A stretch of DNA of 64,000 bases from an uncultured Gammaproteobacteria bacterium (GCA_963701455.1 CAVPAE010000001.1:84841-148840); one strand, 5' to 3'; shown: positions 14,951 through 44,481, numbered from the stretch's first letter. Numbers and translations are program-made. Notes: a model not told the origin generated them from the sequence alone.

Positions 14951-17900
14951 CTACCAGCCGCAGGTACTGCCGGCCTTCAGCTCTGACACGTAGGTCCACA
15001 CCTTCTCGGCGACACGACCCTTGACCAGGTGCTCCTTCCACTCCTTGCCGTCCGAGCCACTGCACTGCACATGGCTGCTCTCGTCGCCGTGGCAACCGCG
15101 GCAGACGGTAGTGAGCGGATTCACACCGTTATAACCGATATCCGGGTTCGGTTCGGGATCGCCGAACACGTGCCCTGTCTTATCGATTTCCGCCTTGTCC
15201 ATGGCGCCACGAGAGACACGGCCCTTGTCGGTATGCTCCAGCCATTCTTCCTCGTCGATCTTAACCTTATCCCACTCGTCACCGTGGCAATTCTTGCAGA
15301 CCTCGTTTCTGGGACTTGCCTCTTCCGTATAGGTGTGCATCCAGCTCACCGCGCGGTCGAAGTTGCTGCCGATGCTCTGGCCCTTGTACCTGAGGTTGTC
15401 TACCCAGGTCGGGATGCCGTTGCTGTCCACAGCGTGACAGGTACCGCACTTCAGCGGACCGTGTGAACCGTCGTGGTTCAGGCTCGCCGCCTGCGCATAC
15501 GACGTGGTGTCGATGTCCGGCGTCACCGGATACAGACCGTGGATCGACTCATGACAGCCCTGACAGCTGATGTCCTGGTGACCACGCGAGTAACGCATCA
15601 GGCTGGCCTTCTGCGGGTAGTTGAACGGCGGGAATGCATTGATGTTGCCGCTCTGCTCCACGTAAGGCGCCGCGTGACAGTCCGCACAGTGCGGTTCGCC
15701 GGCTGACAGCCAGTGATCCCGACCGTCGGTCGCTGCCGAGAACGGCACCGGTACCGCCGCCGAGTTGCTCAGCTTCGCCTGCGCCGCCGCCACACAATCC
15801 TGCGTGGTGCAGAAATCCATGGCATTTACACTGAAGTCGCCATCACCGTCCAGCGAACCGCAGATCTGGAAGTCCGATCCATTCTGGCCGTCACAATCCG
15901 GTCCCGGTACGCCGAACCCGGTCGAGCAGCTCTGGCCCGGCAGGGCCACTTCGATGGTCGCCACGTTGCCGTCCATCGCAGGAATGCCGGGGTCGCCGAA
16001 CAGCACGCCCACGTGGGCACACAGCCCCGGATCACTCTTCCAGATGTCATGAGTGGTATCACCGGTACGCGAACCGCCGTCCGGGAAGGTCGGGTTGACC
16101 AGCGGATCTGCCGGATCCAGCCACGACTTCACCTGATTCATGGTGTAGCTGGTGTTCAGCGCTGCATTCACCGCAAGCCGCACATCGTTCAGCGTTCCGC
16201 CTGCCGGCTCACGTACGTGACCCGCATCACCCGGCCTGGCATGCACCAGGCTGTCCACGTCCTCGGCCTTCCACATTTCCTGACCAAACTGCTGGTGACA
16301 GTTGGTGCACCACAGGCCGCCGTTCACGCTGTTGCCGTCGTTGAACACGTTGTCCGACAGCCACGTACCCACTGGATTCAGATGCACCGGTGTCTCCGCA
16401 CCGTCCGTATCCTTGCCCGGGTTGGAGTGCACGTCACGGCCGACGAAACAGCCGCCGTTGGCATCGCGGTTATCCGTAGTGGCGTAGAAGTTCTCGCCAG
16501 TCAGCGTGATCGGGTAGCCGCTCATGTCGCCGCTGGAACGGTGCGCCGGGTGACAACCCTGACAACCACCACTACGGCCCTCACCGTCGCCAAAGACGAT
16601 GTCACCACCCTCACTGACGCCCTTATGGTTATTGTGAATCGCCTCCGTCACCGGCGGGATGACCTGACCGCCATTGTGAGTCGCCGACTTCACTACCGCA
16701 ATCACGTTATCCGCATGACACTTCTGGCAGATCACACTCTCGTGGCCCAGACGCGTGTTCTGCGGGGCTACCCCACCCACATCCGCGCCAGGATAGTTGT
16801 CCGTGAAACTCGTGCCGTGTTCCACGTCATGACCGTGCAGCATACTGATGGCCGCACTCTTCAGACGTGAGTACCAGTCCGAGTCACCGGCGCCTGTATC
16901 GATGCCGTAGTAGCCGCTCCAGAAGTTGTACTCCTGTTGTACCAGCGCCCACTGGGCCGGATCATCGTTCGGCGTGTTCGGGGTAGCCGGCGCATTCGAG
17001 TGACAACGCTCGCAGTTCGGAATGTCGATCGGTGCCGTACCGAAGCCGATCACCGGGTCGCCATTGCTGTCCAGCACCGGTGTACCGTTGCTGCCGCCGT
17101 CGTAGTGGTACATCTGCGCCTTCATCGCCACGAACGGCCGTACCGAGTCCTCGTCCACCAGTCCCGGATCACCGAAGAAGTCGATGCTGTCCTCGAACGG
17201 CGTTAGCGGCAGGCCCAGGGCCTCCCAGATATTCGGCGAGGTCAGCATGACCGGCAGGTTCTCCAGCACCTTCATCTGCGTGAACACCACCGTGCCATGC
17301 TCGCCTGAGTAGGTCAGCACGTTGCCGTTGGAGAAACCACCACAGTCGTTGGGCGCACCACCCGTGGTAACCGGACCCATCGGGTGCAGCGCAGGACCGC
17401 AGTCGTTCGGGTAGGCCACCATGCCATCAACACCCAGGCGGATCTTGTCGGCATCCGCCGAGGTACCCGTGCTGTTACTGCCTTCCAGGTCCTCGTAGAA
17501 GTACAGGTGGTTCCACACCGCGTTCTGGTAGTTGTCGGTGGGATCGGTCAGATCGCCGTCACCCAGCACTACATCGTCGGCACCGTTGTAGGGGCCGGTT
17601 ACGAAGGTACCGTCCGGGTTCAGCGCCGCTGAATCGAACGTGGTATTCCAGGCCATCAGCGAGTTGCCCTCGACCGCACTGATCAGCGTACTGGTCTGCG
17701 GCTTGCCATTGCCGTCATTGCGCGGCTGTGCGTCGTGCCAGTACTTCAGCACGTACTTCTTGAAGTTGTTGCTGCCATCCAGCGACTTGTCGCGCAGCAC
17801 CGTCTCGCGGCCGAGACCGTCCTTGCCAACATTCGGGTCGCCTTCCAGCAACGCGGGGAAAGAAAAGTCTTCGTCCTCGTGCCCACCCGGGCCTGCAGGC

Positions 17901-18466
17901 TTGACTACCTGAGCCAGGATGGAGTTATACACCGGCAGCACGCAGCAGTAGGCGAACTCGAAACCGGTGCAGTGCATGCCCAGCTCGTAGTTCATCATGA
18001 TCTTGAAATCAGTCTGCGTCGGGAGATCCACCTGTGGCGGAGGCAGCGTGGTCGTGGTCGTCACCGCGGCCGTTGTCGTCGTCGTTGACGTGGTCGTGGT
18101 CGTTCCTCCGCCAGCACAATTGGACGGGGCGTTATTCACATCCCTGAAATCTGTCTTGCCATCGAACTGTACAGCCTTAACCTTGCAGGGTACGGACGAA
18201 GTACTGGAATAGGATTTGCTCACACTCCACTTGCGGTAACGGCAACTGGTGTCGGTAGCGACATATGCACCGCTGTCAGCATTGGTCACGGTTGCACTGA
18301 AATTGCGGCTCCTGTCGCAACTGCCATTGACACTGAGCCTCCCACTACTCCAGCTGGCCGAGTCGATGTCAAAAGAAGCCGCTGCGTTGCCCGAAAAGGC
18401 AAGCACGCCCGCCAGCAGCACCAGCAAGCCGCTACAGCGGGTCCACATTGATAGTTTTCGTCTCAT
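14951..18466 (-). CDS. Giant nonaheme c-type cytochrome, paralog 1 (signal peptide, Ig-like N-domain, poly-Thr linker, 9 CxxCH)
   Basis: The 1186-aa ORF has nine CxxCH motifs (CERCH, CQKCH, CQGCH, CTNCH, CADCH, CQGCH, CGTCH, CKNCH, CRGCH). The linker is TTTTTSTTTTTAAVTTTTTLPPP, followed by the conserved motif NYELGMHCTGFEFAYCCVLPVYNSILAQVVK. The start was chosen at MRRKLSMW, which follows a GGAGG RBS. Confidence 0.85.
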   Translation of the reverse strand: MRRKLSMWTRCSGLLVLLAGVLAFSGNAAASFDIDSASWSSGRLSVNGSCDRSRNFSATVTNADSGAYVATDTSCRYRKWSVSKSYSSTSSVPCKVKAVQFDGKTDFRDVNNAPSNCAGGGTTTTTSTTTTTAAVTTTTTLPPPQVDLPTQTDFKIMMNYELGMHCTGFEFAYCCVLPVYNSILAQVVKPAGPGGHEDEDFSFPALLEGDPNVGKDGLGRETVLRDKSLDGSNNFKKYVLKYWHDAQPRNDGNGKPQTSTLISAVEGNSLMAWNTTFDSAALNPDGTFVTGPYNGADDVVLGDGDLTDPTDNYQNAVWNHLYFYEDLEGSNSTGTSADADKIRLGVDGMVAYPNDCGPALHPMGPVTTGGAPNDCGGFSNGNVLTYSGEHGTVVFTQMKVLENLPVMLTSPNIWEALGLPLTPFEDSIDFFGDPGLVDEDSVRPFVAMKAQMYHYDGGSNGTPVLDSNGDPVIGFGTAPIDIPNCERCHSNAPATPNTPNDDPAQWALVQQEYNFWSGYYGIDTGAGDSDWYSRLKSAAISMLHGHDVEHGTSFTDNYPGADVGGVAPQNTRLGHESVICQKCHADNVIAVVKSATHNGGQVIPPVTEAIHNNHKGVSEGGDIVFGDGEGRSGGCQGCHPAHRSSGDMSGYPITLTGENFYATTDNRDANGGCFVGRDVHSNPGKDTDGAETPVHLNPVGTWLSDNVFNDGNSVNGGLWCTNCHQQFGQEMWKAEDVDSLVHARPGDAGHVREPAGGTLNDVRLAVNAALNTSYTMNQVKSWLDPADPLVNPTFPDGGSRTGDTTHDIWKSDPGLCAHVGVLFGDPGIPAMDGNVATIEVALPGQSCSTGFGVPGPDCDGQNGSDFQICGSLDGDGDFSVNAMDFCTTQDCVAAAQAKLSNSAAVPVPFSAATDGRDHWLSAGEPHCADCHAAPYVEQSGNINAFPPFNYPQKASLMRYSRGHQDISCQGCHESIHGLYPVTPDIDTTSYAQAASLNHDGSHGPLKCGTCHAVDSNGIPTWVDNLRYKGQSIGSNFDRAVSWMHTYTEEASPRNEVCKNCHGDEWDKVKIDEEEWLEHTDKGRVSRGAMDKAEIDKTGHVFGDPEPNPDIGYNGVNPLTTVCRGCHGDESSHVQCSGSDGKEWKEHLVKGRVAEKVWTYVSELKAGSTCGW

Positions 18467-18604: not shown

Positions 18605-18619
18605 GCAAATTTCGCTCCA
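18605..18619 (-). promoter_or_regulatory. Candidate sigma54 -24/-12 promoter for cytochrome 1 (minus-strand TGGAGC-N5-TTTGC)
   Basis: The GG and GC elements have canonical spacing and lie about 130 nt upstream of the start codon. A TGYCAG-type repeat array lies 100-170 bp further upstream. Confidence 0.35.
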
Positions 18620-18710: not shown

Positions 18711-18770
18711 TTTGTCTGCCAGATTTGTCAGTATTGCCTGCCAGATATGGCAGACATAACGGGATGTCAC
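18711..18770. promoter_or_regulatory. Array of TTGTCTG/TTGTCAG/CTGCCAG/TGGCAG/ATGTCAC motifs (candidate enhancer/UAS)
   Basis: Five hexamer-like repeats plus the near-palindrome CTGCCAGATATGGCAG. The motif family is the same as the arrays upstream of cytochrome 2 and of the EBP gene. Confidence 0.4.
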
Positions 18771-19009: not shown

Positions 19010-20552
19010 CTATTGCTCCTTCTCCATCATCTCCCTCAGGTCCGCCTCGCGCTCGGACGTAACCGATCCTTCCCTGGCGGCCTTTTCGGTCAGCCCGGCA
19101 ATAAACTCGGCCTCACGCTTGAACTGGCGTGCCAGCTCCTCTTGATTGACGGCCACCTTGAAATCGTTCTTGCGCAACCCGATGACATAGTTGTCGAGTT
19201 TTTCGCCCATGTACAGGCGCAAGGTCATGCGGCGCGTCTGCGGCTCGCCCAGGTTAATCAGCTGGGCATCCTGCACGTCCAGCACCTTCACCAGGTGCCA
19301 GCCAGCCGGTGATTCCACCGGCCCACCCAGCACATCGGGTTCCAGGAAGAAGGTAAATTCATCCAGCTCCGGGAAACCGCTGCCGTGCAATACCCAACCC
19401 ATGTCACCCAGGGTCTGCTTCGCGGTGGGATCAATCGAATATTCCATGGCCGCCTGGAACATCGTCAGCTCACCGGCATCGATTCTCTGCTTGATGTCCT
19501 CGGCCTCCGCCTGCGTCTTCAACACAACCATCTGTACCTTGCGCATTTCCGGCACGCTGATCTGGTCCTTGTTGGCCTCGAAAAAGACTCTCAGTTCTTC
19601 GTCGGTAGGCATCCAGTCGTGTATCAGCTGACTGCGATGCAGGTTGATCAGGCGGGTCTTGCGGTATTCGCGAGTCCGCTCAACGTAGGATGGATCCGAC
19701 TCCAGACCGGCGGCGCGCCCTTTTATTGCCATCACCCGGGTATCGATGTATACATCCAGGCGTTTGAGCCGCTCGGTGTCGCTATCGAGAAAGAATTCCG
19801 CACTTTCAGCGCGCTTGTCCGCACCCCGCATCAACTCGCTGACTTCACCCCAGGTAATTGTGGTGTCATCCACCGTTGCTACGACTGTATCCTCCGTGCG
19901 CGCCTCATCACCTTCGGGGTTGAGAACATCAGGCTCTATCTCCACGGTTGCACCTTCACGAATACGTGAGCGCAGCCGGGTTTTCAGGGTATTCAGCTTG
20001 GCGTTGCGCAGACTGGCCTCGATGGCAAACCTGCTGTCCGCCGTCAGTTCATCCCCCTCCTTGGCCGTGCTGCATGAAGGACTCCTGGACCTCTTCCTCG
20101 CTAACCTGGATATCACCGTAGAGGATCTTTGAGCGGTACAGACTCGCCAGGACTGCCTCTTCAAAACGACGGATGTCCTGCTGGTAGACCGGTTGCTGAT
20201 CAACCCCCTTCTGCAAGGCATCGAGGTACAGCAGGTTGGCACTGATTGCCTTGTCCAGCAGGGTGATGATGGTCTGATTGCGCTCCGGCGTCCCGAGTGC
20301 AGGAATCGACAGGCCCACCATGGCCGAACTGTTCAGCATGGTATTGAGCAGGCTGAAGGTGATCTCCTCCGCCTCCACCGTGGCCACCACGTCGGTGAAC
20401 TCCTCGGCCGTCGCGGCCTGTGACATGGGAGCCGCGGTTGGCGGCGCGCTGCTTGCCGCCGTGTCATTCGACGGTTCGCTGCAGCCTCCCAGCAGGAACA
20501 GTCCAAGTACGATCGGTGTCAGGCATGTGAAGCTGATGTTGTTATGGCGCAT
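19010..20552 (-). pseudogene. Parvulin-type PPIase (SurA/PpiD-like) paralog 1, frameshifted
   Basis: The lipoprotein-like N-terminus (MRHNNISFTCLTPIVLGLFLLGGC) with the SurA-like N-domain is in one frame (ORF 20049..20615). The rest, including the parvulin domain (GWHLVKVLD), is in another (ORF 19010..20242). The frames switch at a GGGGG run near 20050. It is collinear with the intact 507-aa paralog at 38986..40443. Confidence 0.7.
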
Positions 20553-20656
20553 GATTGTTTTTTCCGAAGTCAGGTGAACGATATATCCTAATATACAAAT
20601 AGACTGTTGCGCCAATGGCGCCGCAGAACGGTAGCGTTCGAGGTCAAAATAAAGTC

Positions 20657-20689
20657 AAAAAAAAGGGAGAGGAAGTAGCTTCCTCTCCC
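20657..20689 (-). terminator. Intrinsic terminator downstream of cytochrome gene 2
   Basis: On the minus strand there is a GGGAGAGGAAG-CTAC-TTCCTCTCCC hairpin followed by T8. Confidence 0.75.
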
Positions 20690-20739: not shown

Positions 20740-23700
20740 TTACCAGCCGCAGTTCGAGCCGGCATAGGTGTTGGACATGTACTCCCAGGCCACTTCGGAA
20801 GCGCGTCCCTGTACCAGGTGGTTGTTCCACTTGGTGGTACAGCCCCTGCGCGACAGCGAGCTGCTACGGTCACCGTGACACGAGGTACAGACCGTGTTGG
20901 TCGGATCTTCACCGGCATTGATATCACCACCGACATGACCCAGCACTGCGATCTCCGCCTTGTCCATCATCTCGCGAGAACTGCGACCCTTGTAGGAATG
21001 CTCCGTCCAGGTCCTGTTGGTCGAGGAAATCTCACTGCTGTTATCCTGGTGACAGTTCAGACAGTAATCATCCAGTCCATCGGCCTCGGCCGTGAAGGTG
21101 TGCATCCAGGACACCGCCGCATCGTAGTTTTCCTTGATCGGCTGTCCGTTGTACGTCAGGCCATCCTCGATATGACTCGGAACACCGGCACCATTCACCT
21201 GGTGACAGGTACCGCACTTCAGCGGACCATGCGAACCGTCATGGTTCAGCGCCGCTGCCTGCTTGTACGACGTCGTGTCGATGTCCGGCGTCACCGGATA
21301 CAGACCGTGGATCGACTCGTGACAACCCTGACAGCTGATGTCCTGGTGACCACGTGAGTAACGCATCAGCGAGGCCTTGCGCGGGTAGTTGAACGGCGGG
21401 TAGGCATTGATGTTGCCGCTCTGCTCCACGAACGGTGCCGCGTGGCAGTCCGCACAGTGTGGCTCACCCGCTGACAGCCAGTGATCACGACCGTCGGTCG
21501 CTGCCGAGAACGGTACCGGTACCGCCACCGAACCCGCAGGCAGGGTCGCCTGTGCCGCCGTCACACAATCCGGCGTGGTGCAGAAGTCCATCGCATTCAC
21601 ACTGAAGTCACCGTCAACATCAACGCTGCCGCAGATATGGAACGCCGGGGCACCCGGATACTGCAGCACCGCAGTCGATCAGGCCGGTACCACCACCGGT
21701 CGAGCAGGCTGCCGCACTGGTTGACATTGACCTCAACCGTGGCCACGTTGCCGTCATGCGCCGGATCAACCGGGATGACGCCGAAGTAACCGGCCACGTA
21801 GTTACACAGACCCGGATCAGACTTCCAGATGGTGTGGGTGTCATCCACCGCATTGGTGTCCTTCGGATCCAGCCAGGAAATGGCCTGTGCCGTCGGTAGT
21901 ACCCGACCGCTGCAGCCACATCGCGCCAGCGTAGCACCGGCACGGCTCACGCACGTTGGCCATGCATCACCCGGCTGTGCATCACCAGGTCTTCCACGTT
22001 TTCAGCCTTCCACATCTCCTGACCCAGCTGCTGGTGACAGTTGGTGCACCACAGACCGCCGTTGACACTGTTGCCGTCGTTGAACACGTTGTCCGACAGC
22101 CACTGGCCGACCGGATTCAGGTGCTCAGGTGTCTCGGCACCGTCGGTATCCTTGCCCGGGTTGGAGTGCACGTCACGGCCGACGAAACAGCCGCCGTTGG
22201 CATCGCGGTTATCCGTAGTGGCGTAGAAGTTCTCGCCAGTCAGCGTGATCGGGTAGCCGCTCATGTCGCCGCTGGAACGGTGCGCCGGGTGACAACCCTG
22301 ACAACCACCATTACGGCCCTCACCGTCGCCAAAGACGATGTCACCACCCTCACTGACGCCCCGGTGATTATTATGGATCGCCTCGGTCACCGGCTTGATA
22401 ACCTGACTTCGCCATTGTGCGTGCGCTGATTTAACCACCGCAATGACGTTATCCGCATGACACTTCTGGCAGATCACACTCTCGTGACCCAGACGCGTGT
22501 TCTGCGGGGCTACCCCACCCACATCCGCGCCCGGATAGTTCGCCGTGAAGCTCGTGCCGTGCTCGACGTCATGGCCGTGCAGCATACTGATGGCCGCACT
22601 CTTCAGACGTGAGTACCAGTCCGAGTCACCGGCACCCGTATCGATGCCGTAGTAACCGCTCCAGAAGTTGTACTCCTGCTGCACCAGTGCCCACTGGGCC
22701 GGATCATCGTTCGGCGTGTTCGGCGTCATCGGTGCATTCGAGTGACAACGCTCGCAGTTCGGGATGTCGATCGGTGCCGTACCGAAACCGATCACCGGAT
22801 TACCCGCGCCGTCCAGCACTGCCGTGCTCGTTGGCACCGCCGTCGTAGTGATACATCTGTGCCTTCATGGCCACGTACGGACGTACCGAGTCCTCATCCA
22901 CCAGTCCGGGATCACCGAAGAAGTCGATGCTGTCCTCAAACGGTGTCAGCGGCAGACCCAGGGCCTCCCAGATGTTCGGCGAGGTCAGCATGATCGGCAG
23001 GTTCTCCAGTACCTTCATCTGCGTGAACACCACCGTGCCGTGTTCACCGGAGAAGGTCAGGACGTTGCCGTTGGAGAAACCGCCGCAGTCGTTGGGGGCA
23101 CCGCCCGCGGTAACCGGACCCATCGGGTGCAGTGCCGGACCACAGTCTGCCGGGTAGGCAACCATACCGTCGACACCGAGGCGGATCTTGTCGGCATCCG
23201 CCGAGGTACCCGTGCTGTTGCTGCCTTCCAGATTCTCGTAGAAGTACAGGTGGTTCCACACCGCATTCTGGTAGTTGTCGGTGGGATCAGTCAGATCGCC
23301 GTCACCCAGTACCACGCCGTCGGCACCGTTGTAGGAACCGGTCACGAAGGTACCGTCCGGATTCAGCGCCGCCGAGTCGAACGTGGTGTTCCAGGCCATC
23401 AGCGAGTTGCCCTCGACCGCACTGATCAGCGTGCTGGTCTGGCGCTTGCCGTTGCCGTCGTTACGCGGCTGCGCATCGTGCCAGTACTTCAGCACGTATT
23501 TCTTGAAGTTGCCGCTACCGTCCAGCTCCAGATCGCGCAGTACCGTCTGGCGTCCCAGCGCATCCTTGCCTTCGTTCGGATCGCCTTCCATCAGGCGGGC
23601 ATAATCACCGTTGTCGATCCGGGTCAATGGTGTTGGGCTTGACCACCTGCGCCAGGATGGAGTTGTACACCGGCAGCACGCAGCAGTAGGCAAACTCGAA

Positions 23701-24315
23701 ACCGGTGCAGTGCATGCCCAGCTCGTAGTTCATCATGATCTTGAAATCGGTCTGCGGATTGTCCAGACCAATATCAGGTGGAGGCAGTGGCGGCAGTGTT
23801 GTCGTGGTGGTTGCCGTCCCTGTTGTCGTGGTCGTCGTCGCCGTGGCCGTTGTCGTGGTCGTCGCCGTGGCCGTGGTCGTGGTCGTTACCGGAGCCGTGG
23901 TCGTGGTCGTCGCCGGTGCCGTTGTCGTGGTCGTTGTCGTGGTCGTGGTCGTTGTGGTTCCTCCAGTGACGTTCACCGTGACGCTGGCAGAACAGGTGTG
24001 ACCTTTGTCATTCTGACCATTCAGGGTGGCCTGGAAGTTACCGGCAGCAGCATAGCTGACAGTCACATTCTGTGAACTGGAGCTTGAAGGAGAACCACCG
24101 GCAAATGCCCATGAATAAGCTGTATGGACTTTTGCCCGTGACAGTGCCGTGAAACTGACTGAGCCACCGACAGCAATCTTCGCCGGGCTGGGTACGGTGG
24201 TAATCGAACAGTTGGCAGACTGGGCGGCCTGGGCGTTGGATACACCCAGCAACACCAGCGTACAGAGCATCAGCCCGGTTACTGCAGTTGAAAGAAATCG
24301 TTGCGCTAGAGACAT
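20740..24315 (-). pseudogene. Giant multiheme cytochrome paralog 2, split into at least 5 frames
   Basis: Fragments 23605..24423, 22800..23693, 21947..22837, 21597..21950 and 20740..21669 together rebuild the same architecture as paralog 1. They include the signal peptide, a long poly-Thr linker, the NYELGMHCTGFEFAYCCVLPVYNSILAQVVK motif and all the heme motifs (CERCH, CQKCH, CQGCH, CTNCH, CADCH, CQGCH, CGTCH, CLNCH, CTSCH). Confidence 0.8.
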
Positions 24316-24425
24316 GGCACTTTCCCCTATTGTTATGCGACTGTCCAGGTCGTAAAACATTCTGGTTGTAAACATTCCGGGCCGACATCGGCTCCCTTCC
24401 GGAATAGCGAGACGCCTAAACAATA

Positions 24426-24441
24426 AGCAGATTCCATGCCA
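24426..24441 (-). promoter_or_regulatory. Candidate sigma54 promoter for cytochrome 2 (minus-strand TGGCAT-N5-CTGCT)
   Basis: GG at -24 and GC at -12 have the correct spacing, about 100 nt upstream of the MSLAQRF start. An AT-rich stretch, which may be an IHF site, and the TGTCAG array lie upstream. Confidence 0.45.
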
Positions 24442-24520
24442 ACCTACCTCATTAAGGGTAAGTAGAAGTACTTATTACATAATTTTTATGACGACACCAG
24501 AGAAGTATGCGGATGAAGGC

Positions 24521-24580: not shown

Positions 24581-24600
24581 AACAAGCAGGAAACCCGGAA

Positions 24601-30226: not shown

Positions 30227-30228
30227 AT

Positions 30229-35198: not shown

Positions 35199-35798
35199 TG
35201 TCACTGACCTCCGGCTATTCGATCTGGTGCCTTGTGCTCCGTGGCAGGTTGTTCTAGTCTGGCTTGTGCCGGTCTCGCCCTCGATGTAGGCCTCGATATC
35301 GGCCGCCGTGATCTGACCGGTATAACGTGCAACCGATGTGCCGCTCGGGGACACGATAAAGGTCGTTGGCAATGCCATGATCAGGCCGAAAGGCGTGGCC
35401 GGTGAGGTGCCCCAGGGCAGGATCGGGTAGGTCACATCCACGCTGTCCAGGAAAGCCCGCATCCAGCTCAACCTGATGTCCTCGAAGTTCACTCCCAGCA
35501 CGACCGCATCCTGGTCCTTGTGCCGGTCATGAAAGTCCGATAGCTCCGGCATTTCCTGGATGCACGGCGGACAGGTCGTCGCCCAGAAATTGACAACCAC
35601 CCACTTGCCCCGGTATTCCGCTAGCGTATGCAGATTGCCGTCCATGTCCTTCAGGGAAAGTTCGATAGGTATCCGTTCGGTCCCTGCCTCGGCGGCTGTC
35701 AGCGTAGCCGGTCCACAACAAAAAACAGCCACCAGCAACAGAACGGCCGACCGGAATGACCTGGATATCAGCATGGTGGTTCGCGTATCGGCTGACAT
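35193..35798 (-). CDS. TlpA/ResA-like thiol:disulfide oxidoreductase (second copy)
   Basis: The active site is WATTCPPCIQEMP, and there is an N-terminal anchor. Confidence 0.75.
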   Translation of the reverse strand: MSADTRTTMLISRSFRSAVLLLVAVFCCGPATLTAAEAGTERIPIELSLKDMDGNLHTLAEYRGKWVVVNFWATTCPPCIQEMPELSDFHDRHKDQDAVVLGVNFEDIRLSWMRAFLDSVDVTYPILPWGTSPATPFGLIMALPTTFIVSPSGTSVARYTGQITAADIEAYIEGETGTSQTRTTCHGAQGTRSNSRRSVTC

Positions 35799-36331
35799 GA
35801 CGGGCCCCCGCTATTCGCCCGTGCGGCGCAAGCGCCACGACCTGACGGACGCCTCGATCTCCAGCAGGTCGAAGGCAAGCGCCCCGCCGGGGGCAATGCC
35901 CGCGAAGCGCACCCGTGGCCTTGACCACGTCCTGACGCCGGATGCCCTTGTTCTAGCATCCATTCATCCTGTGCGGGGGTAATCCGTATCCGGATCACGT
36001 GGACAGACTGTTGTACGGGCCTGGCCGTGAAGTGGGTTTCACCGATAATGGTCTGTCGGCTCTTGGCCGGATCCACATCCTCCTTGTCACGGTAGATGTG
36101 ATAGAACTTGAACCGGTCTTCAAAGACGGTGCCCAGGTATTTTTCCGGTTCCCTGTGCATGAGATCCAGCGGGACATCCCGCATGGTCAGGACCTGCTCA
36201 TCCGCTGCAACCGGGATCCAGGGGCTGGTATTCGGGTTTTCAGCGTTTGTTGCAGTTGCAGTTTCAGCCGCGGCCACTGTCGTCATGGAAAGCGACATCA
36301 TCAGTAATGCCAGAACAATTTTTTTCATCAC
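35768..36331 (-). CDS. Hypothetical secreted protein with an uncertain C-terminus
   Basis: It has a signal peptide (MMKKIVLALLMMSLSMTTVAAA). The Gly/Arg/Pro-rich tail looks like read-through rather than real protein. Confidence 0.35.
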   Translation of the reverse strand: MMKKIVLALLMMSLSMTTVAAAETATATNAENPNTSPWIPVAADEQVLTMRDVPLDLMHREPEKYLGTVFEDRFKFYHIYRDKEDVDPAKSRQTIIGETHFTARPVQQSVHVIRIRITPAQDEWMLEQGHPASGRGQGHGCASRALPPAGRLPSTCWRSRRPSGRGACAARANSGGPSCQPIREPPC

Positions 36332-36509: not shown

Positions 36510-38835
36510 CTACCGCAACCGGTGCGCCAGGTCCACGGCCATTTCGTAATCCGCCCAGTAGGGACCGTCCTTCGTGATGATGTCCGGATACTCTGACGGC
36601 ACGCCGTGTTCATTCACGGCATGGCAGCCCCCGCACTTCAGCGGGCCGTGGGTTCCATCGGGGTTCAGCAGGGCCGCCTGTTCATAGCTGGCGATATCCA
36701 CCGCCGGATTCACCGGGTACAGACCGTGAGTCGATTCATGGCAACCCTGGCAGGTGATCTGCGCATGCCCCTTGGAATAGCGCATCAGCGCATACTTGCC
36801 GGGCTGGTCGATGGGGAAGGCCCCGCCGCCCATGCTCTCGACATACGGCGGCTGATGGCAGTCGGCACAGTGCGGCTCACCGGCAGCCAGCCAGTAGTCC
36901 CGGCCATGGGTCGCGGCGTCATAGGGAACCGCCACGCCCTCCTTCCCGTTCGGATCCGTATCCACAATGATCACCGACTGGTCACCGTCCTCATCGGGCG
37001 GCGTCATCACCGGCTTGCCCTTGTCATCCACCTTGATGCGTGCAATCGGGGCGATGGTCTGCCCGGTACGATCCCAGGTGCGGTACACACCACTGCTGGT
37101 GTCCTCGCCCTTCATCGGGCTCTTGGGATTGATATAGTCCTGCTTCAGGTCTTTGACCTCGACACCCACGGCGGCGGCGATCTTCTCCAGCGGCTGATTG
37201 CGCAACGTCTGGCCGGTCTGATTGACGGCATCGGTAAGATGATCCGCCTTGTACAGTTCGCGCGAGAGCATGTTGTGGCAGTTGGTGCAGTACAGTCCCT
37301 TGTCCTTGCCCCCGGTCATCATCACCTCGGAGAGCAGGTACTCGCCCACCGGATTGAGGTGAACTGGACGGTCTCCGCGCCATCGGTATTCCGCCCGGGA
37401 TTGCCGTGTGCACATCCCGTGCCCGTGAAACACCCCTTGGCATCGCGGATGTCGCCCTTGGCAAAGAAGTTTTGTCCGTCCTCGGTGAGCGGAAATTCGT
37501 CCATGCTCAGGTCGCTGCGGTGCGAGGGGTGGCAACCCTGGCAGCCGCCGGCAAAGCCAAGACTGTCCGGCAACGGGTTGTTGCGCTGATGACTCTTGTG
37601 GATGGCCTCGGTCAGGGGAGAGATCAGGTGTTCGGGATCGGCAAGATTGGCATGGTCTTTCTGCACGTCCTGTTCTTCCATTTCGCCGGCCTTCTTCGAA
37701 AACAGCCGGCCAATGACATTGTCCGCATGGCAGTCCTGGCAGAGCACGGTGCCCCGTCCCAGGCGCAGAAAGTTGTTGCCGCCGGCCGGCCAGTTGGCCA
37801 GAAAATCCGTGCCATGATTGGCGTCATGGATCTCGAGGATCGAGATGGCCGCAGCCTTGAGCTGTGCATACCATTCACTGGAGCGGCGCACCTCGCGCCA
37901 GAAGTCATGTTCCTGCTTGTATTTGAGGTACTTGTCGCCATTGGCACGCTCGTTGGAATGACAGCGTGCGCAGTTGGGCACATCGATGGGATTGACCCCG
38001 AAAAACCGCACGGGCTTCCCGGAGGAATCGATCACCGGCTCCCGCGTTTCCGGGTCCACCAGGGTCACCACGGATTTCTGGAAGGGCTGCACCATGTCTT
38101 CTTCCACGTGGATGATCGCGGTGAACATGGTCGTTAAATGGGGTCAGCGGCAGGCCCAGGGCCTCCCAGATCCCGGGATTGGTCAGCTTGATGGGCACGT
38201 TCTCCATGGCCGGAGAATCAGTGTAGACCACGGTCCCCGTTTCACCGGAATAGCGCAGGAAGCCCCTGCCCACGTGCTGCCCCGTCGGCCCCTGGTTGAA
38301 GCCGATCGGTGTATCCACCCCGACATGAAGTTTTTTGGCATCGGCGCTGGTATTGTCCGGATTGGACCCCTCGAGATCCTTGTAGAGGTAGAGGTTGCTG
38401 AAGTAGACATCGGGAAGCTTTTCATTCTCCCCGTAGACCGACGCCCCAGTAGGCCAGTTTCTTGGAAGCCGAGTAGGTGTTGGGCACGCCCCTTGGGCTC
38501 TCATGGGTATAGGCGAGCTTGAAGCGCTTGTCGCCATCCACCAGCACCTCATGATCATCGGGGTCGGCTCCCAGCAACACGGGTTTTTCACCGTTCCTGC
38601 CGGTCTTCACTACCTGGGCAAGGATGGAATTGTAGGGCGGCAGTACGCAGCAGTAGGCGAAGTCGAAGCCGGTACAGTGCATGCCCAGTTCATAGTTGAT
38701 CAGGATCAGGTAATCCCGGGGCGGGTCCTGTTCCTTGCCGGCCGGCGCACCGGTTACGGCCTGTGCCGTACCGAGCAAAAGCATGAGAAACACCCCAACC
38801 CGGCATTGCCTGAAACTCTGGAACAACCTGGTCAT
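36510..38835 (-). pseudogene. Multiheme cytochrome paralog 3 (shorter, no Thr linker), split across at least 4 frames
   Basis: Fragments 38422..38982 (signal peptide plus NYELGMHCTGFDFAYCCVLPPYNSILAQVVK), 37905..38591, 37322..38128 (CARCH, CQDCH, CQGCH) and 36510..37535 (CTNCH, CADCH, CQGCH, CGGCH) are collinear with paralogs 1 and 4. The start was placed at MTRLFQ, which follows GAGGGGGAG. Confidence 0.75.
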
Positions 38836-38985: not shown

Positions 38986-40443
38986 TCAGGAAGCCCCCTG
39001 CTCCTGCTGTGGCGTCACTTCAGGCTGAGCCGGAACCTGCCCCATTTCCTCTTCGAGCAGTCGGTTCAGCACATCATTGTAGACTTCAACCTTGTAACGG
39101 TTTTTCCTCAGGTTGGCGGTGTACTCGTTCATGCGTTCCTTGATCATCATGCGCCGGGTCTTGCGCCAGGTGTCGGCCTGCGAGATGTTGGTAGACTCCG
39201 CCTCGCTGATTTCCAGAACCTTGACCAGGTGCCAGCCGGCGGGTGATTCCACCGGCCCCCCGATTTCGTTCAGCGGCAGGGAAAACGTCAGCTCCTCGAG
39301 TTCGGGAAAGCCGCTGCCCTGTGAGACCCAGCCGATTTCTCCCAGGGTCTGCTTCGCACCCGGATCGATGGAGAAATCCTTCGCCGCCTCGTAGAAGGTC
39401 ATCTCTCCGGACTCGATCTCCTGCTTCACCCGTTCGGCATCCTCTTTCACCATCATGACCACCATCTGTACCTTGCGCGCCTCGGGGATGGTGATCCTGT
39501 CCCTGTGTTCCTTGAAATAGGCACGGATCTCGTCGTCGGTGGGCTCCAGTTCCTCGATCAGCTGGCCCCGGTGCATGCTGACCAGGCGGAGTTTCCTGAA
39601 CTCGTTGAGCCGCTCCTGGAAACGCGGGTCGGCTTCCAGGTTTGCGGCCCGCGCTTTCCTGAGCATAATGCGCCGGTCGATGAAATCATTCAGCACCGCC
39701 AGGCGTTTTTCCACCGAATCATCGCCCTTCGGCGAGGAAAACAGGCCCCTGACATCGCCCCAGGTAACCGCTTCCTGGTCCACCCTTGCGACAACTGTAT
39801 CACTTTTACGGGTCACGTCCTGTGACGGGTCGAGTTGCGTCTGGTCAACCGTGACCTCGAGGCCCTCCCTGAGCCGCTCACGCAGTCCTTTCTTGCGGGC
39901 GGTGAACTTATCCTTGCGCAGCGAGGCCTCGATGGCCGTGCCCAGGTCCTTGGTAAAGGGCGTTCCCTCGACAATATTATTCTCGTAGAACGCCATGATC
40001 TCCTCATCAGAGACCGGGATATCACCAATCACGACCTGTTGCCGGTACATGGTAACCAGCGTGGACTCGGTGAAACGTTCCACCTCATACTGATAGACAG
40101 GGGCCTGGTCCATGCCCTTGTCCAGAGCGTCGAGGTAGAGCAGGTTGGCGCTGACGATCTTGTCCAGCAGTGTGATCCGGACCTTGTTTCTCTCCGGGGT
40201 TCCCGGTGGCGGGATGTTCATGCCGATAACACCGGAACTGTTCAGCATGATCTCGATCTGGTTGAAGGTGATGGGCTGATCGCCCACCCGGGCGATAATC
40301 TCGTTGGGCTGTTCCCGGGTGATGACCTGGATACCGACCTGTGCGCCGGCCTTGTCCGCTTCAGGCGCAGCACTTGCCGAAACGGGCACGGTAGCGAGCA
40401 GGGTACAGACCAGCGTAATGAATACAGAAATAAATCTTGGCAT
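38986..40443 (-). CDS. Parvulin-type PPIase (SurA/PpiD-like) paralog 2, intact
   Basis: It has a signal peptide, a SurA-like N-domain and a parvulin domain (DFSIDPGAKQTLGEIGWVSQGSGFPE...GWHLVKVLE). The start was placed at MPRFISV. Confidence 0.8.
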   Translation of the reverse strand: MPRFISVFITLVCTLLATVPVSASAAPEADKAGAQVGIQVITREQPNEIIARVGDQPITFNQIEIMLNSSGVIGMNIPPPGTPERNKVRITLLDKIVSANLLYLDALDKGMDQAPVYQYEVERFTESTLVTMYRQQVVIGDIPVSDEEIMAFYENNIVEGTPFTKDLGTAIEASLRKDKFTARKKGLRERLREGLEVTVDQTQLDPSQDVTRKSDTVVARVDQEAVTWGDVRGLFSSPKGDDSVEKRLAVLNDFIDRRIMLRKARAANLEADPRFQERLNEFRKLRLVSMHRGQLIEELEPTDDEIRAYFKEHRDRITIPEARKVQMVVMMVKEDAERVKQEIESGEMTFYEAAKDFSIDPGAKQTLGEIGWVSQGSGFPELEELTFSLPLNEIGGPVESPAGWHLVKVLEISEAESTNISQADTWRKTRRMMIKERMNEYTANLRKNRYKVEVYNDVLNRLLEEEMGQVPAQPEVTPQQEQGAS

Positions 40444-40553
40444 GGGAATAATCCTGGTTATTGAAAACATTTTATACATCCAGTGCATACAACTTAATGT
40501 TAGTAACACAGCTACGCCCCGAAGTTCAATTTATATACGGGATGAATACCATC

Positions 40554-40744: not shown

Positions 40745-40779
40745 CAAAAAAATGGAGGGGAGGTTGCCCTCCCCTCCAT
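40745..40779 (-). terminator. Intrinsic terminator downstream of cytochrome gene 4
   Basis: On the minus strand there is an ATGGAGGGGAGG-GCAA-CCTCCCCTCCAT hairpin followed by T7. A second hairpin (GCCTGCCCGATATCCGGGCAGGC) lies just after the stop codon. Confidence 0.75.
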
Positions 40780-40827: not shown

Positions 40828-43800
40828 TTACCAGCCGCAGTGGGTGCCGTCTGCTGCCGGTTGGCCGGCGACGTTGTTGGCAGTCACCTCCACCCACGCA
40901 ACCTCGGAGGCACGGCCCTCGACCAGGTGGTTCTTCCACTTGGTCGTGCAGCCCCTGCGTTGCAGTGAGCGGGTGCGGTCGCCGTGGCAACCCTTACACA
41001 CCGTCTGCTCCGGATCCTCGAAGGCCGGATCGCCGGACACGTAGCCCTGGCTCGCGATCTCTGCCTTGTCCATCGCATCCCGGGTCACGCGGCCATCAAA
41101 GGCGTGGTCGACCCACTTGCTCGCGGAGGAGCTGATCAGCGCACTGTTGTCACCGTGGCAGCGGGTGCAGATGAAGTCCGCCGGGTCCACGTCCTCGGTG
41201 TAGGTGTGCATCCAGGAGACTGCCGCGTCGAAGTCATTGTCGATCGGCGTGCCACGGAAATCCAGGGCAGTGTTCACCCGGCCATCCGGATTCACATAGA
41301 CGCCATCACCATTGGTCTGGTGGCAGGCGCCACACTTCAGCGGCCCGTGAGAGCCATCGGCATTCATGCTCATCGCCTGGGCGTAGCTGGTCTCGTCGAT
41401 CGCCTTGTCGCCGTACATCCCCGGTGGTGTCACCGGATAGAGGCCGTGGATCGATTCATGGCAACCCTGGCAGGTGATGTCCTGGTGACCGCGGGAATAG
41501 CGGTTCAGGGACGCCTTGCGCGGGTAGTTGAACGGCGGGAAGGCATTCACGTTGCCGCTCTGCTCCGTATACGGCGCCGCGTGACAGTCCGCACAGTGCG
41601 GTTCACCCGGTGACAGCCAGTGGTCACGGCCGTCGGTCGCGGCCGAGAACGGTACCGGCACTGCCGCCTGACCGGGGCCGGTCAGGGTCGCGTTCGCCGC
41701 ATCCACACAGTCCTGCGTGGTGCAGAAGTCCATGAGAGCGACGTTGACATCACCATCCACATCCAGCGATCCGCAGATGCTGAAATCAGGATTGCCGTTG
41801 CCGTCGCAGTCCGGTCCCGGCAGCCCCACACCCGTGGAGCAGTCGGTGGGTACGATCGGTTCGGACTGCAGGTTCACCTCGATCGTCGCCACGTTGCCGT
41901 CCTGTGCCGGAGTCGGCTCTGCGCCGAACAGCGAGGCGACATGGTCACAGAGACCGGGATCCGGCGCCCATATGGCGTGGGTCTGGTCCGTGGTCCGGTG
42001 GGAGCCCGGATCGATCCAGCTCTCCACCTGGTCAAGCGTATAGCTGGTACCCCGCGCCGCGTTGACCGCATTCACCACATCCAGCAGGTCGGTGCCGCCC
42101 GGCTCGCGCACGTGGCCCGGGTCACCGGGTTCAGCATGCACCAGGCTGACGACGTTCTCCGCCTTCCACATCTCCTGGCTGAACTGCTGGTGACAGTTGG
42201 TGCACCAGAGGCCCTTGCCCGAAGGGCCATTGGGGGAGGCGTCGGAGCTGACCTGGTTCCGCAACCACTGACCCACCGGATTCAGGTGCTCTGGGGTCTC
42301 CGCGCCACCGGGAGCGTCCTTCATGGCATTGGAGTGGACGTCACGGCCCACGAAGCAGCCGCCGGCCGCATCGCGGTTGTCCCCTGCTGCGAAGGCGTTG
42401 GAGCCGTCCTCGGTGATCGGATAGCTGGCGAGACCGCCGTCGGAGCGGTGCGCCGGATGGCAACCCTGGCAGCCACCACTGCGACCCTCGGCATCGGCGA
42501 ACTGGACATTGCCGGCCTCGCAGACGCCGTCACCGGCCCCCGCACTCGTGTCGCAATCTGCGTTCACACTGCACTGATTGTGGCCACCCAGGCCTGCACT
42601 GCAATAGAGCTCGGTTGTCTCACGGTGGTTGAAGTGAATCGCCTCGGTCAGCGGCGGGATCAGGTCGCCGGCTTCACAGGTGAGACTGCCGGGTCCGCAG
42701 TTGGCCGACTTGACTGTCGCGATGACGTTGTCGGCATGGCAGCGCTGGCAGAGTACCGACTCGTGGCCGAGGCGGTAGTTCTGCGGAAGACCGAAGCCGG
42801 TGCTCGGATAGTTACCCATGAAATTGGTGCCATGCTCGTTGTCGTGGATGTTCAGGATCGAGATGGCCGCCCCCTTCAGGCGCGAGTACCAGTCGGAGTC
42901 ACCCCCGCCGGTGTCGATAGCGTAGTAGGTGTTCCAGAAGTCCATCTCCAGCTGCACGTTCGCCATGACATCGGGGTTGTTGTTGACATTCTGCGCGCTG
43001 TTAATACCCGAGAAGTCGGAGTGGCAGCGCTCGCAGTTGGGAATGTCGATGGGTGCGGTACCAAAACCGATCACCGGCTTGCCGTCGTCGAGGACCGCTG
43101 CACCCGGGGTGCAGGCAGAGCCGACACAGTCGGCCTCATGCAACTGGGCCTTCATGGCGACGTACGGACGAATCGAGTCCTCGTCCACCAGTCCGGGGTC
43201 ACCGAAGAAGTCGATGGTGTCCTCGAACGGTGTCAGGGGCAGGCCCAGGGCCTCCCAGATCCGCGGAGAGGTAAGCATCACTGGCAGGTTCTCCAGCACC
43301 TTCATCTGGGTGAACACCACGGTGCCATGATCGGTGGAGAAGGTCAGCACGTTGGAAAGGCCAGCCGTGGAACCCGGTCCCATGGGATGGAAGGCGGGAC
43401 CGCTGTTGTCCGGCAGCACTGTTGAGAACGGGATATGGGCATTCGGCATGCCGAGGCGGATCTTGTCAGCCTCCGCGCTGGTAACCCCCGGAGGGATGGT
43501 GCCTTCCAGGTCGGCGTAGATGTAGAAGTGGTTCAACCACGCATTGGCATAGTTGTCCCCGGCCTGGCCGAAGGTGCCGTCACCCTGCACGACGTTTTGC
43601 GCGCCGTTGTAGTCATCGTAGATCAGCTTGTTGCCGGCATCCACATCCGCACCGTCGAATACCGTTTGCCACATCAGCAGGGAGTTGCCCTCCACATTAC
43701 TGATCAGGCGACTGGTCTGGTTCTTGCCGTTGGGATCATCGTTGCGTGGCTGGGCATCGTGCCAGTAGGTCAGCATGTACTTCTTGAAGTTGCCGTTGGC

Positions 43801-44481
43801 GTCCAGTTCCTTGTCGCGCACGACCGTGGGCCGGCCAAGAAAGTCGAGCCCGACACTGTGGTCAGCTTCCAGGGTGTCCGGGAATCCACCGCCTTTGTCC
43901 GTCTTCACCACCTGGGCAATGATGGAGTTATACGGCGGCAGCACGCAGCAATAGGCGAACTCGAATCCGGTGCAGTGCATACCCAGCTCGTAGTTCATCG
44001 GGATGATGAAGGCCTTCTGGCCGGCGTTCGCAGCAACGCAGCCGATGTCTTCCACGCATTCGCTGTCAGCGCAGTCCAGGTCGCCGTTGCCGTTGTTATC
44101 AATGCCATCGTCGCAGATTTCCAGGTTGGCGGTCTGGGCCAGCGTGGTCGTGGTGGTCGTTGTTGACGACGTTGATGTTGTTGTACCTCCTCCCTCAGTC
44201 GTGGTCGTCGTTGTTGACGTACTTGTGGTTGACGTTGTCGACGATGTCGTTGTGCCCTGACAGTAGTTAGAGCTGGTGCAATCGGGATCGTTGCAGTCGA
44301 TCAACCCGTCGTTGTCGTTGTCGACGCCGTCGCTACACTTGTTGTCGCCCTTTTCTTTCTGGCCGCCACCGCCGCCCGGTGCGGCGTAGACGTCTCCCGG
44401 CACGGTGAGTGCCAGCGGTACTGCAAGCGCAAGCCCCAGCGAAAGCAGGCATGCGGTGAAAATGCGTAGTGGATTCCTCAT
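40828..44481 (-). CDS. Giant nonaheme c-type cytochrome, paralog 4 (Cys-rich Ca-binding-like N-repeats, poly-Thr/Ser linker)
   Basis: It is 1217 aa with nine CxxCH motifs. The N-terminus has two CxDGxDNDxDGxxDCxDxDC repeats, and the linker is TTTSSTTSTTSTSTTTTTT...TTTTTTT. It carries the conserved motif NYELGMHCTGFEFAYCCVLPPYNSIIAQVVK. Confidence 0.85.
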   Translation of the reverse strand: MRNPLRIFTACLLSLGLALAVPLALTVPGDVYAAPGGGGGQKEKGDNKCSDGVDNDNDGLIDCNDPDCTSSNYCQGTTTSSTTSTTSTSTTTTTTEGGGTTTSTSSTTTTTTTLAQTANLEICDDGIDNNGNGDLDCADSECVEDIGCVAANAGQKAFIIPMNYELGMHCTGFEFAYCCVLPPYNSIIAQVVKTDKGGGFPDTLEADHSVGLDFLGRPTVVRDKELDANGNFKKYMLTYWHDAQPRNDDPNGKNQTSRLISNVEGNSLLMWQTVFDGADVDAGNKLIYDDYNGAQNVVQGDGTFGQAGDNYANAWLNHFYIYADLEGTIPPGVTSAEADKIRLGMPNAHIPFSTVLPDNSGPAFHPMGPGSTAGLSNVLTFSTDHGTVVFTQMKVLENLPVMLTSPRIWEALGLPLTPFEDTIDFFGDPGLVDEDSIRPYVAMKAQLHEADCVGSACTPGAAVLDDGKPVIGFGTAPIDIPNCERCHSDFSGINSAQNVNNNPDVMANVQLEMDFWNTYYAIDTGGGDSDWYSRLKGAAISILNIHDNEHGTNFMGNYPSTGFGLPQNYRLGHESVLCQRCHADNVIATVKSANCGPGSLTCEAGDLIPPLTEAIHFNHRETTELYCSAGLGGHNQCSVNADCDTSAGAGDGVCEAGNVQFADAEGRSGGCQGCHPAHRSDGGLASYPITEDGSNAFAAGDNRDAAGGCFVGRDVHSNAMKDAPGGAETPEHLNPVGQWLRNQVSSDASPNGPSGKGLWCTNCHQQFSQEMWKAENVVSLVHAEPGDPGHVREPGGTDLLDVVNAVNAARGTSYTLDQVESWIDPGSHRTTDQTHAIWAPDPGLCDHVASLFGAEPTPAQDGNVATIEVNLQSEPIVPTDCSTGVGLPGPDCDGNGNPDFSICGSLDVDGDVNVALMDFCTTQDCVDAANATLTGPGQAAVPVPFSAATDGRDHWLSPGEPHCADCHAAPYTEQSGNVNAFPPFNYPRKASLNRYSRGHQDITCQGCHESIHGLYPVTPPGMYGDKAIDETSYAQAMSMNADGSHGPLKCGACHQTNGDGVYVNPDGRVNTALDFRGTPIDNDFDAAVSWMHTYTEDVDPADFICTRCHGDNSALISSSASKWVDHAFDGRVTRDAMDKAEIASQGYVSGDPAFEDPEQTVCKGCHGDRTRSLQRRGCTTKWKNHLVEGRASEVAWVEVTANNVAGQPAADGTHCGW

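Follow-up and report, generated by a model that had tools for sequence, protein, structure and literature searches.

An unnamed family of predicted exported multihaem c-type cytochromes, encoded with maturation genes in two operons of an uncultured gammaproteobacterium

The DNA analysed here, a 64,000-nucleotide stretch from an uncultured Gammaproteobacteria bacterium (GCA_963701455.1 CAVPAE010000001.1:84841-148840; the whole stretch is referred to as the window), carries four related genes for multihaem c-type cytochromes, designated P1 to P4. As the original prediction had it, all four lie on one strand (the minus strand) between positions 14951 and 44481, which was borne out by an open reading frame (ORF) scan and by tblastn. 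P1 and P4 are intact, and the start ATG of P1 is preceded by a GGAGG ribosome-binding site. P2 and P3 were located by tblastn of P1 and P4 against the window and were recovered only across joined frames, with at least four frame changes in P2 (~23610, ~22828, ~21982 and 21700-21900) and three single-base frame changes in P3 (~38428, ~38127 and ~37370). The stitched translations contain no internal stop, and they hold nine CxxCH motifs in P2 and seven in P3. The count of nine previously given for every copy thus stands for P1, P2 and P4, and not for P3, where seven are in frame. A six-frame scan of the 64 kb placed 34 of its 42 CxxCH strings in frame within P1-P4, a clustering that is far beyond chance. 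Signal peptides are present in all four copies and are of the SPase I type in the long copies (P1, P2 and P4), while haem attachment is predicted from the CxxCH motifs and the adjacent ccm operon. Taken at the level of sequence, the four genes form two operons with sigma54-type promoter elements that are predicted to encode one family of Sec-exported multihaem c-type cytochromes.

The conserved core of these proteins begins at the motif NYELGMHCTGF(E/D)FAYCCVLP(P/V)YNSI(L/I)AQVVK, which had been reported as common to the four and was indeed found in P1-P4, with at least 90% conservation among 122 family members. The core is longer than the ~850 residues first estimated, measuring 971-1055 residues in P1, P2 and P4 (~1,010 in long forms generally) and 723 in P3. 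The near-invariant loop NYELGMHCTGFEFAYCC opens a haem-free, beta-rich domain of ~330 residues, which is followed in order by four CxxCH haems, a small Cys-rich beta domain and five haems. An AlphaFold2 model of P1 (predicted local distance difference test score [pLDDT] 80.9; predicted template modelling score [pTM] 0.81) displayed the same order of beta, haem, beta and haem sections, comprising the beta-rich haem-free domain (~155-480), a helical four-haem domain (485-830), a small beta domain (834-908) and a five-haem domain (909-1171). Many His and Cys residues are invariant across the family alignment. In particular, the haem-free domain conserves His165, Cys166, Cys174, Cys175, His244, His320 and His361, and the second beta domain a C-x4-C pair; cysteines outside the haem motifs number from 6 (P3) to 29 (P4). 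Identity over the core is 81% between P1 and P2, 66% for P1-P4 and P2-P4, and 48-49% between P3 and the others. P1 and P2 share ~90% DNA and 92% protein identity over the first ~540 residues of the core and 67% protein identity over the C-terminal third. This mosaic pattern (window 21000-23600 versus 15300-17900) suggests that the tandem copies have undergone gene conversion or have recombined with each other.

Relatives of these proteins are numerous. Among the candidates scored, 624 homologs of P1 were found at E <= 1e-3, the best with 71% identity. The top 120 share 51-73% identity with P1, and their alignments cover 73-100% of it (at least 83% in all except two); 119 of these 120 have exactly nine CxxCH motifs. 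Most are unnamed, the remainder being labelled in general terms (e.g. 'hypothetical protein'). When 1.84 billion representatives were searched exhaustively with a profile, 528 clusters (defined at 50% identity) were returned at E <= 1e-3 and 142 at the stricter E <= 1e-30, with many fragments among them. Some proteins in this set have ~740-840 residues, which is as long as the short form, and a few have 1,700-1,900. Giant members of 1,558-1,941 residues with ten CxxCH motifs were observed at three related loci (L044 8126-13588, L052 8384-13057 and L070 7631-13453) and are extended versions of the family. Among species-representative genomes the carriers are for the most part metagenome-assembled genomes (MAGs) from Thiogranum, Ca. 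Thiodiazotropha, Sulfuricaulis/Sulfurifustaceae, Ectothiorhodospiraceae, Sedimenticolaceae, Chromatiaceae and Methylococcaceae, and family identity is 55-80% across several orders of Gammaproteobacteria. Outside these groups, single carrier MAGs come from Desulfobacterales, Nitrospirota, Ca. Methylomirabilis and Bacteroidota.

The original prediction could not match the core to any characterised cytochrome family, and Pfam, NCBIfam and PDB sequence and profile searches agree. The Cytochrome_C7 model PF14522 matched P1 with 38.0 bits (residues ~921-1011) and P4 with 26.9 bits, above the cutoff of 24.8, and matched 16 of 16 members in a family-wide Pfam scan run on a 16-member alignment (the conservation figures are drawn from the 122 members). 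Part of the C-terminal pentahaem region is thus c7-like by its sequence, resembling the cytochrome c7/c3 class III families (PF14522 and PF02085), although this is a domain-level match that covers less than 10% of P1. For the rest of the core no Pfam model was found beyond generic c7/c3 haem-motif matches, and NCBIfam gave no match to the core. A single-sequence search of the PDB found nothing significant (two cytochrome c7 chains at E = 0.08 and 0.17), and a PDB search with the 122-sequence profile gave no match. The family is widespread, unnamed and uncharacterised; its core architecture is new and its maturation cassette, described below, is conserved, and as a system it stays within the known multihaem cytochrome theme, of which it is a variant.

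P3 had been taken for a broken nonahaem paralog lacking an N-terminal domain. Instead, it is 60-72% identical to intact heptahaem proteins of 771-786 residues from other genomes, which identifies it, by sequence, as an ortholog of a distinct short heptahaem subfamily that is intact elsewhere. Members of this subfamily normally stand after a peptidyl-prolyl isomerase (PPIase) gene in an operon of the order long cytochrome, PPIase, short cytochrome.

In front of the core, the proteins differ. The unrelated N-terminal domains originally described (Ig-like in P1, PKD/Ig-like in P2, Ca-binding-like CxDGxDNDxDGxxDC repeats in P4 and none in P3) were recovered by the structural model (P1), Pfam (P2) and NCBIfam (P4), and the poly-Thr linkers assigned to three copies were likewise found. 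In the AlphaFold2 model, residues 33-110 of P1 are a confidently predicted beta-sandwich whose fold neighbours are solely Ig/FN3-like, and Pfam has no match there. The N-domain of P2 is a PKD domain that passes the gathering score (PF00801; 44.8 bits versus a cutoff of 23.5; E = 1.3e-11), and that of P4 consists of two acidic double-disulfide repeats (NF033662; 41.4 bits versus a cutoff of 41, a small margin reached over two stretches), whereas in P3 the core follows directly after the signal peptide. No other poly-Thr runs occur in the 64-kb window. Among the 120 homologs, the N-terminal extension ranges from ~40 to 380 residues, and Thr/Ser linkers of at least 8 residues are rare (7 of 120); N-domains across the family include PKD, cadherin-like, Big_9, dockerin and acidic disulfide repeat types. 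Assembly chimeras were ruled out as an origin of the N-domains: the three N-domain types were each found again in 14 to more than 30 independent homologs, and because of this recurrence we regard the architectures as genuine and the N-domain variation, as read from these sequences, as real and family-wide. A separate ORF of acidic, thrombospondin type 3 (TSP3)-like Ca-binding repeats lies at window 33646-34452 (minus strand), with an 87-bp tandem repeat at 33934-34114 and an upstream Cys-rich segment similar to an insert in P4.

The genomic context of the cytochromes, which the original prediction did not include, comprises PPIases, TlpA-like reductases and sigma54-related elements (Table 1). 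Operon A reads P2 (long), PPIase A and P1 (long), and operon B reads P4 (long), PPIase B, P3 (short, seven haems), a small exported ORF (orf35768) and a TlpA-like gene. Of 78 related loci, 65 have a PPIase after the cytochrome, 41 have a TlpA/ResA-like redoxin as a neighbour and 25 a sigma54 activator with a PAS domain; an independent ORF clustering of 81 loci gave 63, 33 and 39, respectively, and no further gene family was common to more than 14 of the 81. The complete order of operon B (long, PPIase, short, small ORF, redoxin) is intact in at least 10 other loci, the long-PPIase-long arrangement of operon A also occurs elsewhere (e.g. L023), and Thiodiazotropha has a minimal cassette of redoxin, cytochrome and PPIase. 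An ortholog of the second TlpA-like redoxin of the window also flanks the cytochrome in many loci. In the closest relative, L075 (CcmF 92% and activator 86% identical), one cytochrome-PPIase pair stands between the activator and the DUF2059 gene, so the locus in the window is an expanded one. A recent duplication of one operon into the other was rejected, since PPIase A and PPIase B are each ~40-56% identical to the common downstream PPIase gene of related loci, which by this indirect comparison points to an old divergence, and since P3 belongs to a separate subfamily.

Table 1. Positions of the cytochrome genes, their neighbours and associated sequence elements in the window
Feature	Position	Strand	Remark
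P1, long-form nonahaem cytochrome	14954-18466	-	intact ORF; 1171 aa from ATG; nine CxxCH
P2, long-form nonahaem copy	20740-24318	-	frames joined: -2/-3/-1/-3/-2
P3, short-form heptahaem copy	36510-38835	-	frames joined: -2/-3/-1/-3; conceptual 769 aa
P4, long-form nonahaem cytochrome	40831-44481	-	intact ORF; 1217 aa; nine CxxCH
P1 poly-Thr linker	18047-18115	-	23 aa
P2 poly-Thr linker	23797-23970	-	58 aa
P4 poly-Thr/Ser linker	44143-44256	-	20 + 17 aa; between the two acidic repeats
PPIase A (parvulin, SurA/PrsA-like)	19010-20615	-	downstream of P2; two frames, split near 20074
PPIase B (parvulin, SurA/PrsA type, SurA_N-like N-terminal part)	38986-40509	-	intact; directly downstream of P4
Small conserved exported ORF (orf35768)	35768-36331	-	follows the short cytochrome in related loci; C-terminal part looks out of frame
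TlpA/ResA-like thiol-disulfide oxidoreductase	35193-35798	-	motif WATTCPPC; last gene of operon B
PAS-domain sigma54 enhancer-binding protein	45173-46564	-	cytochrome neighbour in 25-39 related loci
Second TlpA-like redoxin	13658-14239	+	motif WASWCPPC; convergent with P1
DUF2059 gene	14251-14685	+	after the second TlpA-like redoxin
ccmABCDEFGHI cytochrome c maturation operon	47101-54497	+	adjoins the cytochrome locus
Lower-GC island (0.50-0.53 vs ~0.60)	24601-33072	-	between operons A and B
Sigma54-type -24/-12 element TGGAGCGAAATTTGC	18605-18619	-	upstream of P1
Palindrome CTGCCAGATATGGCAG	18738-18753		near the P1 sigma54-type element
Sigma54-type element TGGCATGGAATCTGC	24427-24441	-	upstream of P2; read directly
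CTGACA repeats	24520-24590		near the P2 sigma54-type element
Sigma54-type element TGGCCTGCAATTTGC	44543-44557	-	upstream of P4
Palindrome CTGCCAGGCAG	44874-44884		near the P4 sigma54-type element
Perfect sigma54 -24/-12 consensus TGGCACTCATATTGC	46869-46883	+	upstream of ccmA, divergent from the PAS-sigma54 activator gene
11-bp GC-rich hairpin + T8	20665-20689	-	between P2 stop and PPIase A
12-bp GC-rich hairpin + T7	40752-40779	-	between P4 stop and PPIase B

The distance from the sigma54-type elements to P1, P2 and P4 is 65-145 nt, and palindromes or repeats are found near each of these elements. A perfect consensus stands in front of ccmA, and the ccm operon may share its regulator with the cytochrome operons. 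The hairpins that separate each long cytochrome from its PPIase may be intra-operon attenuators setting a high cytochrome-to-chaperone ratio. Both flanks of the locus are ordinary chromosomal genes, and no sign of a mobile element was seen in them: the left flank (window 1-12400) carries pst-type ATP-binding cassette transporter (ABC), phoB/phoR, PHO4, PhoU-like, PPK2 and phosphoglycerate mutase genes, and the right flank (window 54500-64000) carries genes for glutamate dehydrogenase, a Na+/H+ exchanger and an Mrp-type antiporter.

Two further gene types were observed beside the operon in related loci. In 11 loci (L003, L007, L011, L030, L054-L057, L069, L072 and L080; e.g. L054 15147-15593), the PPIase gene is followed by one for a secreted single-domain rhodanese of ~149 residues whose active-site Cys loop is intact, and a search of the window for a rhodanese found none. 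Heavy-metal efflux genes of the resistance-nodulation-division (RND) type (CzcB/CusB, ACR_tran, OEP) adjoin the operon in L080 (16819-23439) and L081 (1-3972), accompanied by either a YtkA-like protein or a multicopper oxidase that contains an fn3 domain.

The frame changes of P2 and P3 are present in the given sequence and were reproduced by a scan of the phase of third-codon-position GC content (GC3). The earlier statement that two copies are intact (P1, P4) and two frameshifted (P2, P3) is thus correct for the sequence as it stands, although the breaks themselves may be an artefact, and they are not confined to cytochromes: PPIase A (near 20074) and ccmA are also disrupted, as is probably the TSP3-repeat ORF (an apparent frame change near 33900), and orf35768 has a probable frame change. 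In ccmA, a 7-bp tandem duplication (GGACGCC x2; 47672-47685, plus strand) splits the gene into two frames, and removal of one GGACGCC copy makes it read ...LDAALDKVDL. Because ccmA is needed for the maturation of all c-type cytochromes, its disruption is either an assembly error or a striking loss. The breaks in P2 and P3, in turn, are either very recent or assembly errors, because the ratio of nonsynonymous to synonymous substitution (dN/dS) between P1 and P2 is about 0.1.

The breaks may reflect very recent decay of copies that were redundant, or local errors in the consensus of an assembly (in P2, P3, PPIase A and ccmA alike), in which case all four cytochromes would be intact in the organism; we see the balance as even. 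The source is a metagenome assembly, because P1, P4, the activator and CcmF all have exact protein matches on a single metagenome contig, and fragmented cytochrome genes also occur in related MAG loci (L024, L033, L069, L075, L077 and L078). That a gene required for every c-type cytochrome is frameshifted as well, that the stitched P2 and P3 lack internal stop codons, that P3 keeps its identity to orthologs over its whole length and that P2 bears the mark of strong purifying selection (dN/dS 0.10-0.15 at dS 0.33-0.48 against P1) are all consistent with errors. However, the distribution of the breaks is more easily reconciled with decay: at least eight disruptions cluster in P2, PPIase A and P3 (~7.5 kb), whereas P1, P4 and PPIase B (together 8.7 kb) have none, and neither has the lower-GC island. 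The indels also stand outside long homopolymers, one being the 7-bp tandem duplication, and are more mutation-like than typical read errors, and it is redundant copies that decay would be expected to strike.

Multihaem cytochromes are the main known electron route between cells and minerals or electrodes. For the present family, a cell-surface electron-transfer role is plausible, and we consider it moderately probable that its members are extracytoplasmic, probably surface-exposed multihaem redox proteins with a dedicated PPIase/TlpA-like maturation. In the mechanism that we propose, the cytochrome would be exported via Sec and receive its haems from the neighbouring Ccm system, the dedicated PPIase would fold the large polypeptide and the TlpA-like protein would hold its non-haem cysteines reduced. 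Once mature, the cytochrome would be an extracytoplasmic redox protein, probably exposed at the surface. Its haem-free domain, which bears the His-Cys...Cys-Cys loop (together with His244, His320 and His361), would provide a substrate or cofactor site, the nine haems would wire this domain to periplasmic carriers and the variable N-domain would tether the protein to a solid phase or surface polymer. In sulfur-oxidising hosts, the protein would most likely carry electrons to or from an insoluble or sulfur/metal substrate, with the respiratory chain at the other end. The adhesin-type N-domains and the Thr stalks favour a position outside the cell or on its surface, and the sulfur-oxidiser hosts and the rhodanese in 11 loci favour a sulfur-related substrate. 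A PPIase encoded beside a secreted redox protein has a precedent in MccB/SirB. Further precedents are UetB (bioRxiv 10.1101/2022.05.06.490989) and MofB (PMC5566968).

Several observations weigh against this interpretation. The main weakness of a surface conduit is that the passage of electrons across the outer membrane stays unexplained, because no conduit gene is linked in the 81 loci; porin, periplasmic decahaem, NHL-repeat or secretion genes were in no case common to more than 14 of them. The long forms lack a lipobox, and the surface location is deduced from their sequence features. The functional proposal itself is a guess from domain types, host taxonomy and a minority rhodanese linkage. 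The role given to the Cys loop is likewise a guess made on the model, in which this loop has a pLDDT below 50 in both runs and is the worst-modelled part of the core; such a low score would fit a cofactor-dependent loop, and proves nothing. Fold searches returned nothing informative, apo models of haem proteins being poor queries, and no paper on the family was found in a literature search of incomplete coverage.

Among known systems, the family works most like the MtrC/OmcA class or the MccA-type multihaem enzymes, and it does not fit the definition of either. A third resemblance, in gene content, is to the uet cluster of Tenderiales, which encodes the tetrahaem UetA, the PPIase UetB, the undecahaem UetJ, the beta-barrel UetC, the NHL-repeat proteins UetH/I, the trihaem UetD/E/G and a cupredoxin (bioRxiv 10.1101/2022.05.06.490989). 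The two share gammaproteobacterial chemolithoautotroph hosts, a predicted extracellular multihaem cytochrome beside a PPIase and an adjacent cytochrome-maturation cluster. However, their haem numbers differ, and the barrel, NHL-repeat, cupredoxin, trihaem and undecahaem genes are not recurrent in the 81 family loci; the likeness is one of gene content, homology between the systems not being demonstrated.

The absence of a linked outer-membrane conduit keeps another reading alive, which we regard as possible although on balance unlikely: the proteins may be periplasmic multihaem enzymes that act on a soluble sulfur compound (sulfite, thiosulfate, polysulfide or tetrathionate) rather than surface conduits, with the His-Cys...Cys-Cys loop as an active site, e.g. 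a Cys-ligated haem or a persulfide carrier. The hosts are mostly sulfur oxidisers, the TlpA-like reductant suits a need for free thiols, and the secreted rhodanese with its intact active-site Cys follows the PPIase in 11 loci, including L080, yet these are just 11 of 81 loci and the window is not among them. A parallel is provided by the octahaem sulfite reductases MccA/SirA of Wolinella and Shewanella, multihaem proteins encoded beside their dedicated PPIase MccB/SirB. Like them, the family combines conserved non-haem Cys with a sulfur-metabolism setting, and a parvulin stands directly downstream of its cytochrome in 63-65 loci, a correspondence in the type of enzyme. In contrast to MccA/SirA, which have eight haems, one of them with a CX15-17CH motif, P1-P4 contain no C-X11-17-CH string (hence no CX15CH) and no CxxCK. 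Partners are missing as well, as no MccC/MccD-type quinol-oxidising protein, quinol dehydrogenase, Fe-S or NrfD-like neighbour is linked in the 81 loci. Neither sequence, profile nor fold similarity to solved MccA was found, and PDB sequence and fold searches gave no match to Otr, TsdA or HAO. The family proteins are also much longer than MccA, and their adhesin-type N-domains and Thr-rich stalks would be unusual for periplasmic enzymes.

The resemblance to the Shewanella outer-surface decahaem cytochromes MtrC, OmcA, MtrF and UndA is one of layout. Both groups consist of large multihaem c-type proteins that are exported and that may make contact with solid substrates, and the alternation of beta-rich and haem-rich sections recalls domains I-IV of MtrC. 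A conserved Cys pair in a beta domain is also common to both, in the present family as C-x4-C in the second beta domain. PF22113, the model of MtrC/MtrF domains II/IV, was detected in 9 of 16 members at E <= 1e-3 (best E 2e-7), although the match is weak and partial (profile positions 81-137 of 176) and, at 25.2 bits, below the gathering threshold of 30. That the family is a divergent relative of MtrC/OmcA/UndA and, in the same way, supplies the extracellular terminal reductase or oxidase to a porin-cytochrome conduit whose genes lie elsewhere in the genome nevertheless seems to us very unlikely: the family has nine haems arranged 4+5 (119 of 120 members) as against ten in two pentahaem domains, a far larger first beta domain bearing the HC...CC loop, no lipobox or lipoprotein signal and no mtrAB-like genes in 81 loci, and no fold similarity to solved MtrC, OmcA or UndA was found. 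Least probable of all is a role in redox detoxification of copper or another heavy metal with the Cys/His loop as metal site, to which the conserved His and Cys residues of the haem-free domain, the multicopper oxidase and CzcB/HMBD-RND pump that follow the operon in L080 and the CusCBA-like pump and YtkA-like protein beside it in L081 would lend themselves, since RND and membrane-fusion clusters occur in just 4 of 81 loci and no such genes in the window.

The lower-GC island that separates the operons codes for a methyltransferase, two membrane proteins (one of them flippase-like), a FemAB-like protein, an ArnC/PgfS-class family 2 glycosyltransferase (GT2), a YdjC deacetylase and a 947-residue YfhO-like protein. 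As a conserved part of the cytochrome system it was rejected, being linked in none of 78 related loci. GtrB/CsbB-YfhO and Pgf-type systems carry out three-component extracytoplasmic glycosylation, and Pgf glycosylates Thr-rich repeats of secreted adhesins. The island resembles them in its polyprenyl-phosphate GT2, its flippase-like protein and its large YfhO-like membrane protein, although all scores lie far below the family cutoffs, the island is unlinked to the cytochrome family elsewhere and the stalks are only a conjectural target. O-glycosylation of the poly-Thr stalks by island products is possible, the island lying between two cytochrome operons in a genome in which these linkers are unusually long. 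A combined scenario, in which the haem-free domain is a new catalytic or cofactor centre, the proteins form a new class of tethered extracellular multihaem enzymes and the island glycosylates their stalks, appears quite unlikely as a whole. In it, the near-invariant His-Cys-x7-Cys-Cys loop and four further conserved His could form a Cys-ligated haem or a Cu/Fe site kept reduced by the TlpA-like reductase, sulfur oxidisers including lucinid-clam symbionts would oxidise or reduce solid-phase sulfur or metal sulfides, and the rare poly-Thr stalks would be O-glycosylated by the GT2, flippase and YfhO-like products.

Returning to the surface-exposed redox protein that we favour, the family has no name, family model or structure, and it occurs, with dedicated maturation genes, in chemosynthetic lucinid-clam symbionts. 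The pair of PPIase and TlpA-like protein offers a practical recipe for heterologous expression. With its function as we infer it, the family is a good target for research on extracellular electron transfer and on sulfur-oxidising symbionts, and if it does prove to be a surface redox enzyme, it would be a missing piece in the way sediment sulfur oxidisers handle insoluble substrates.

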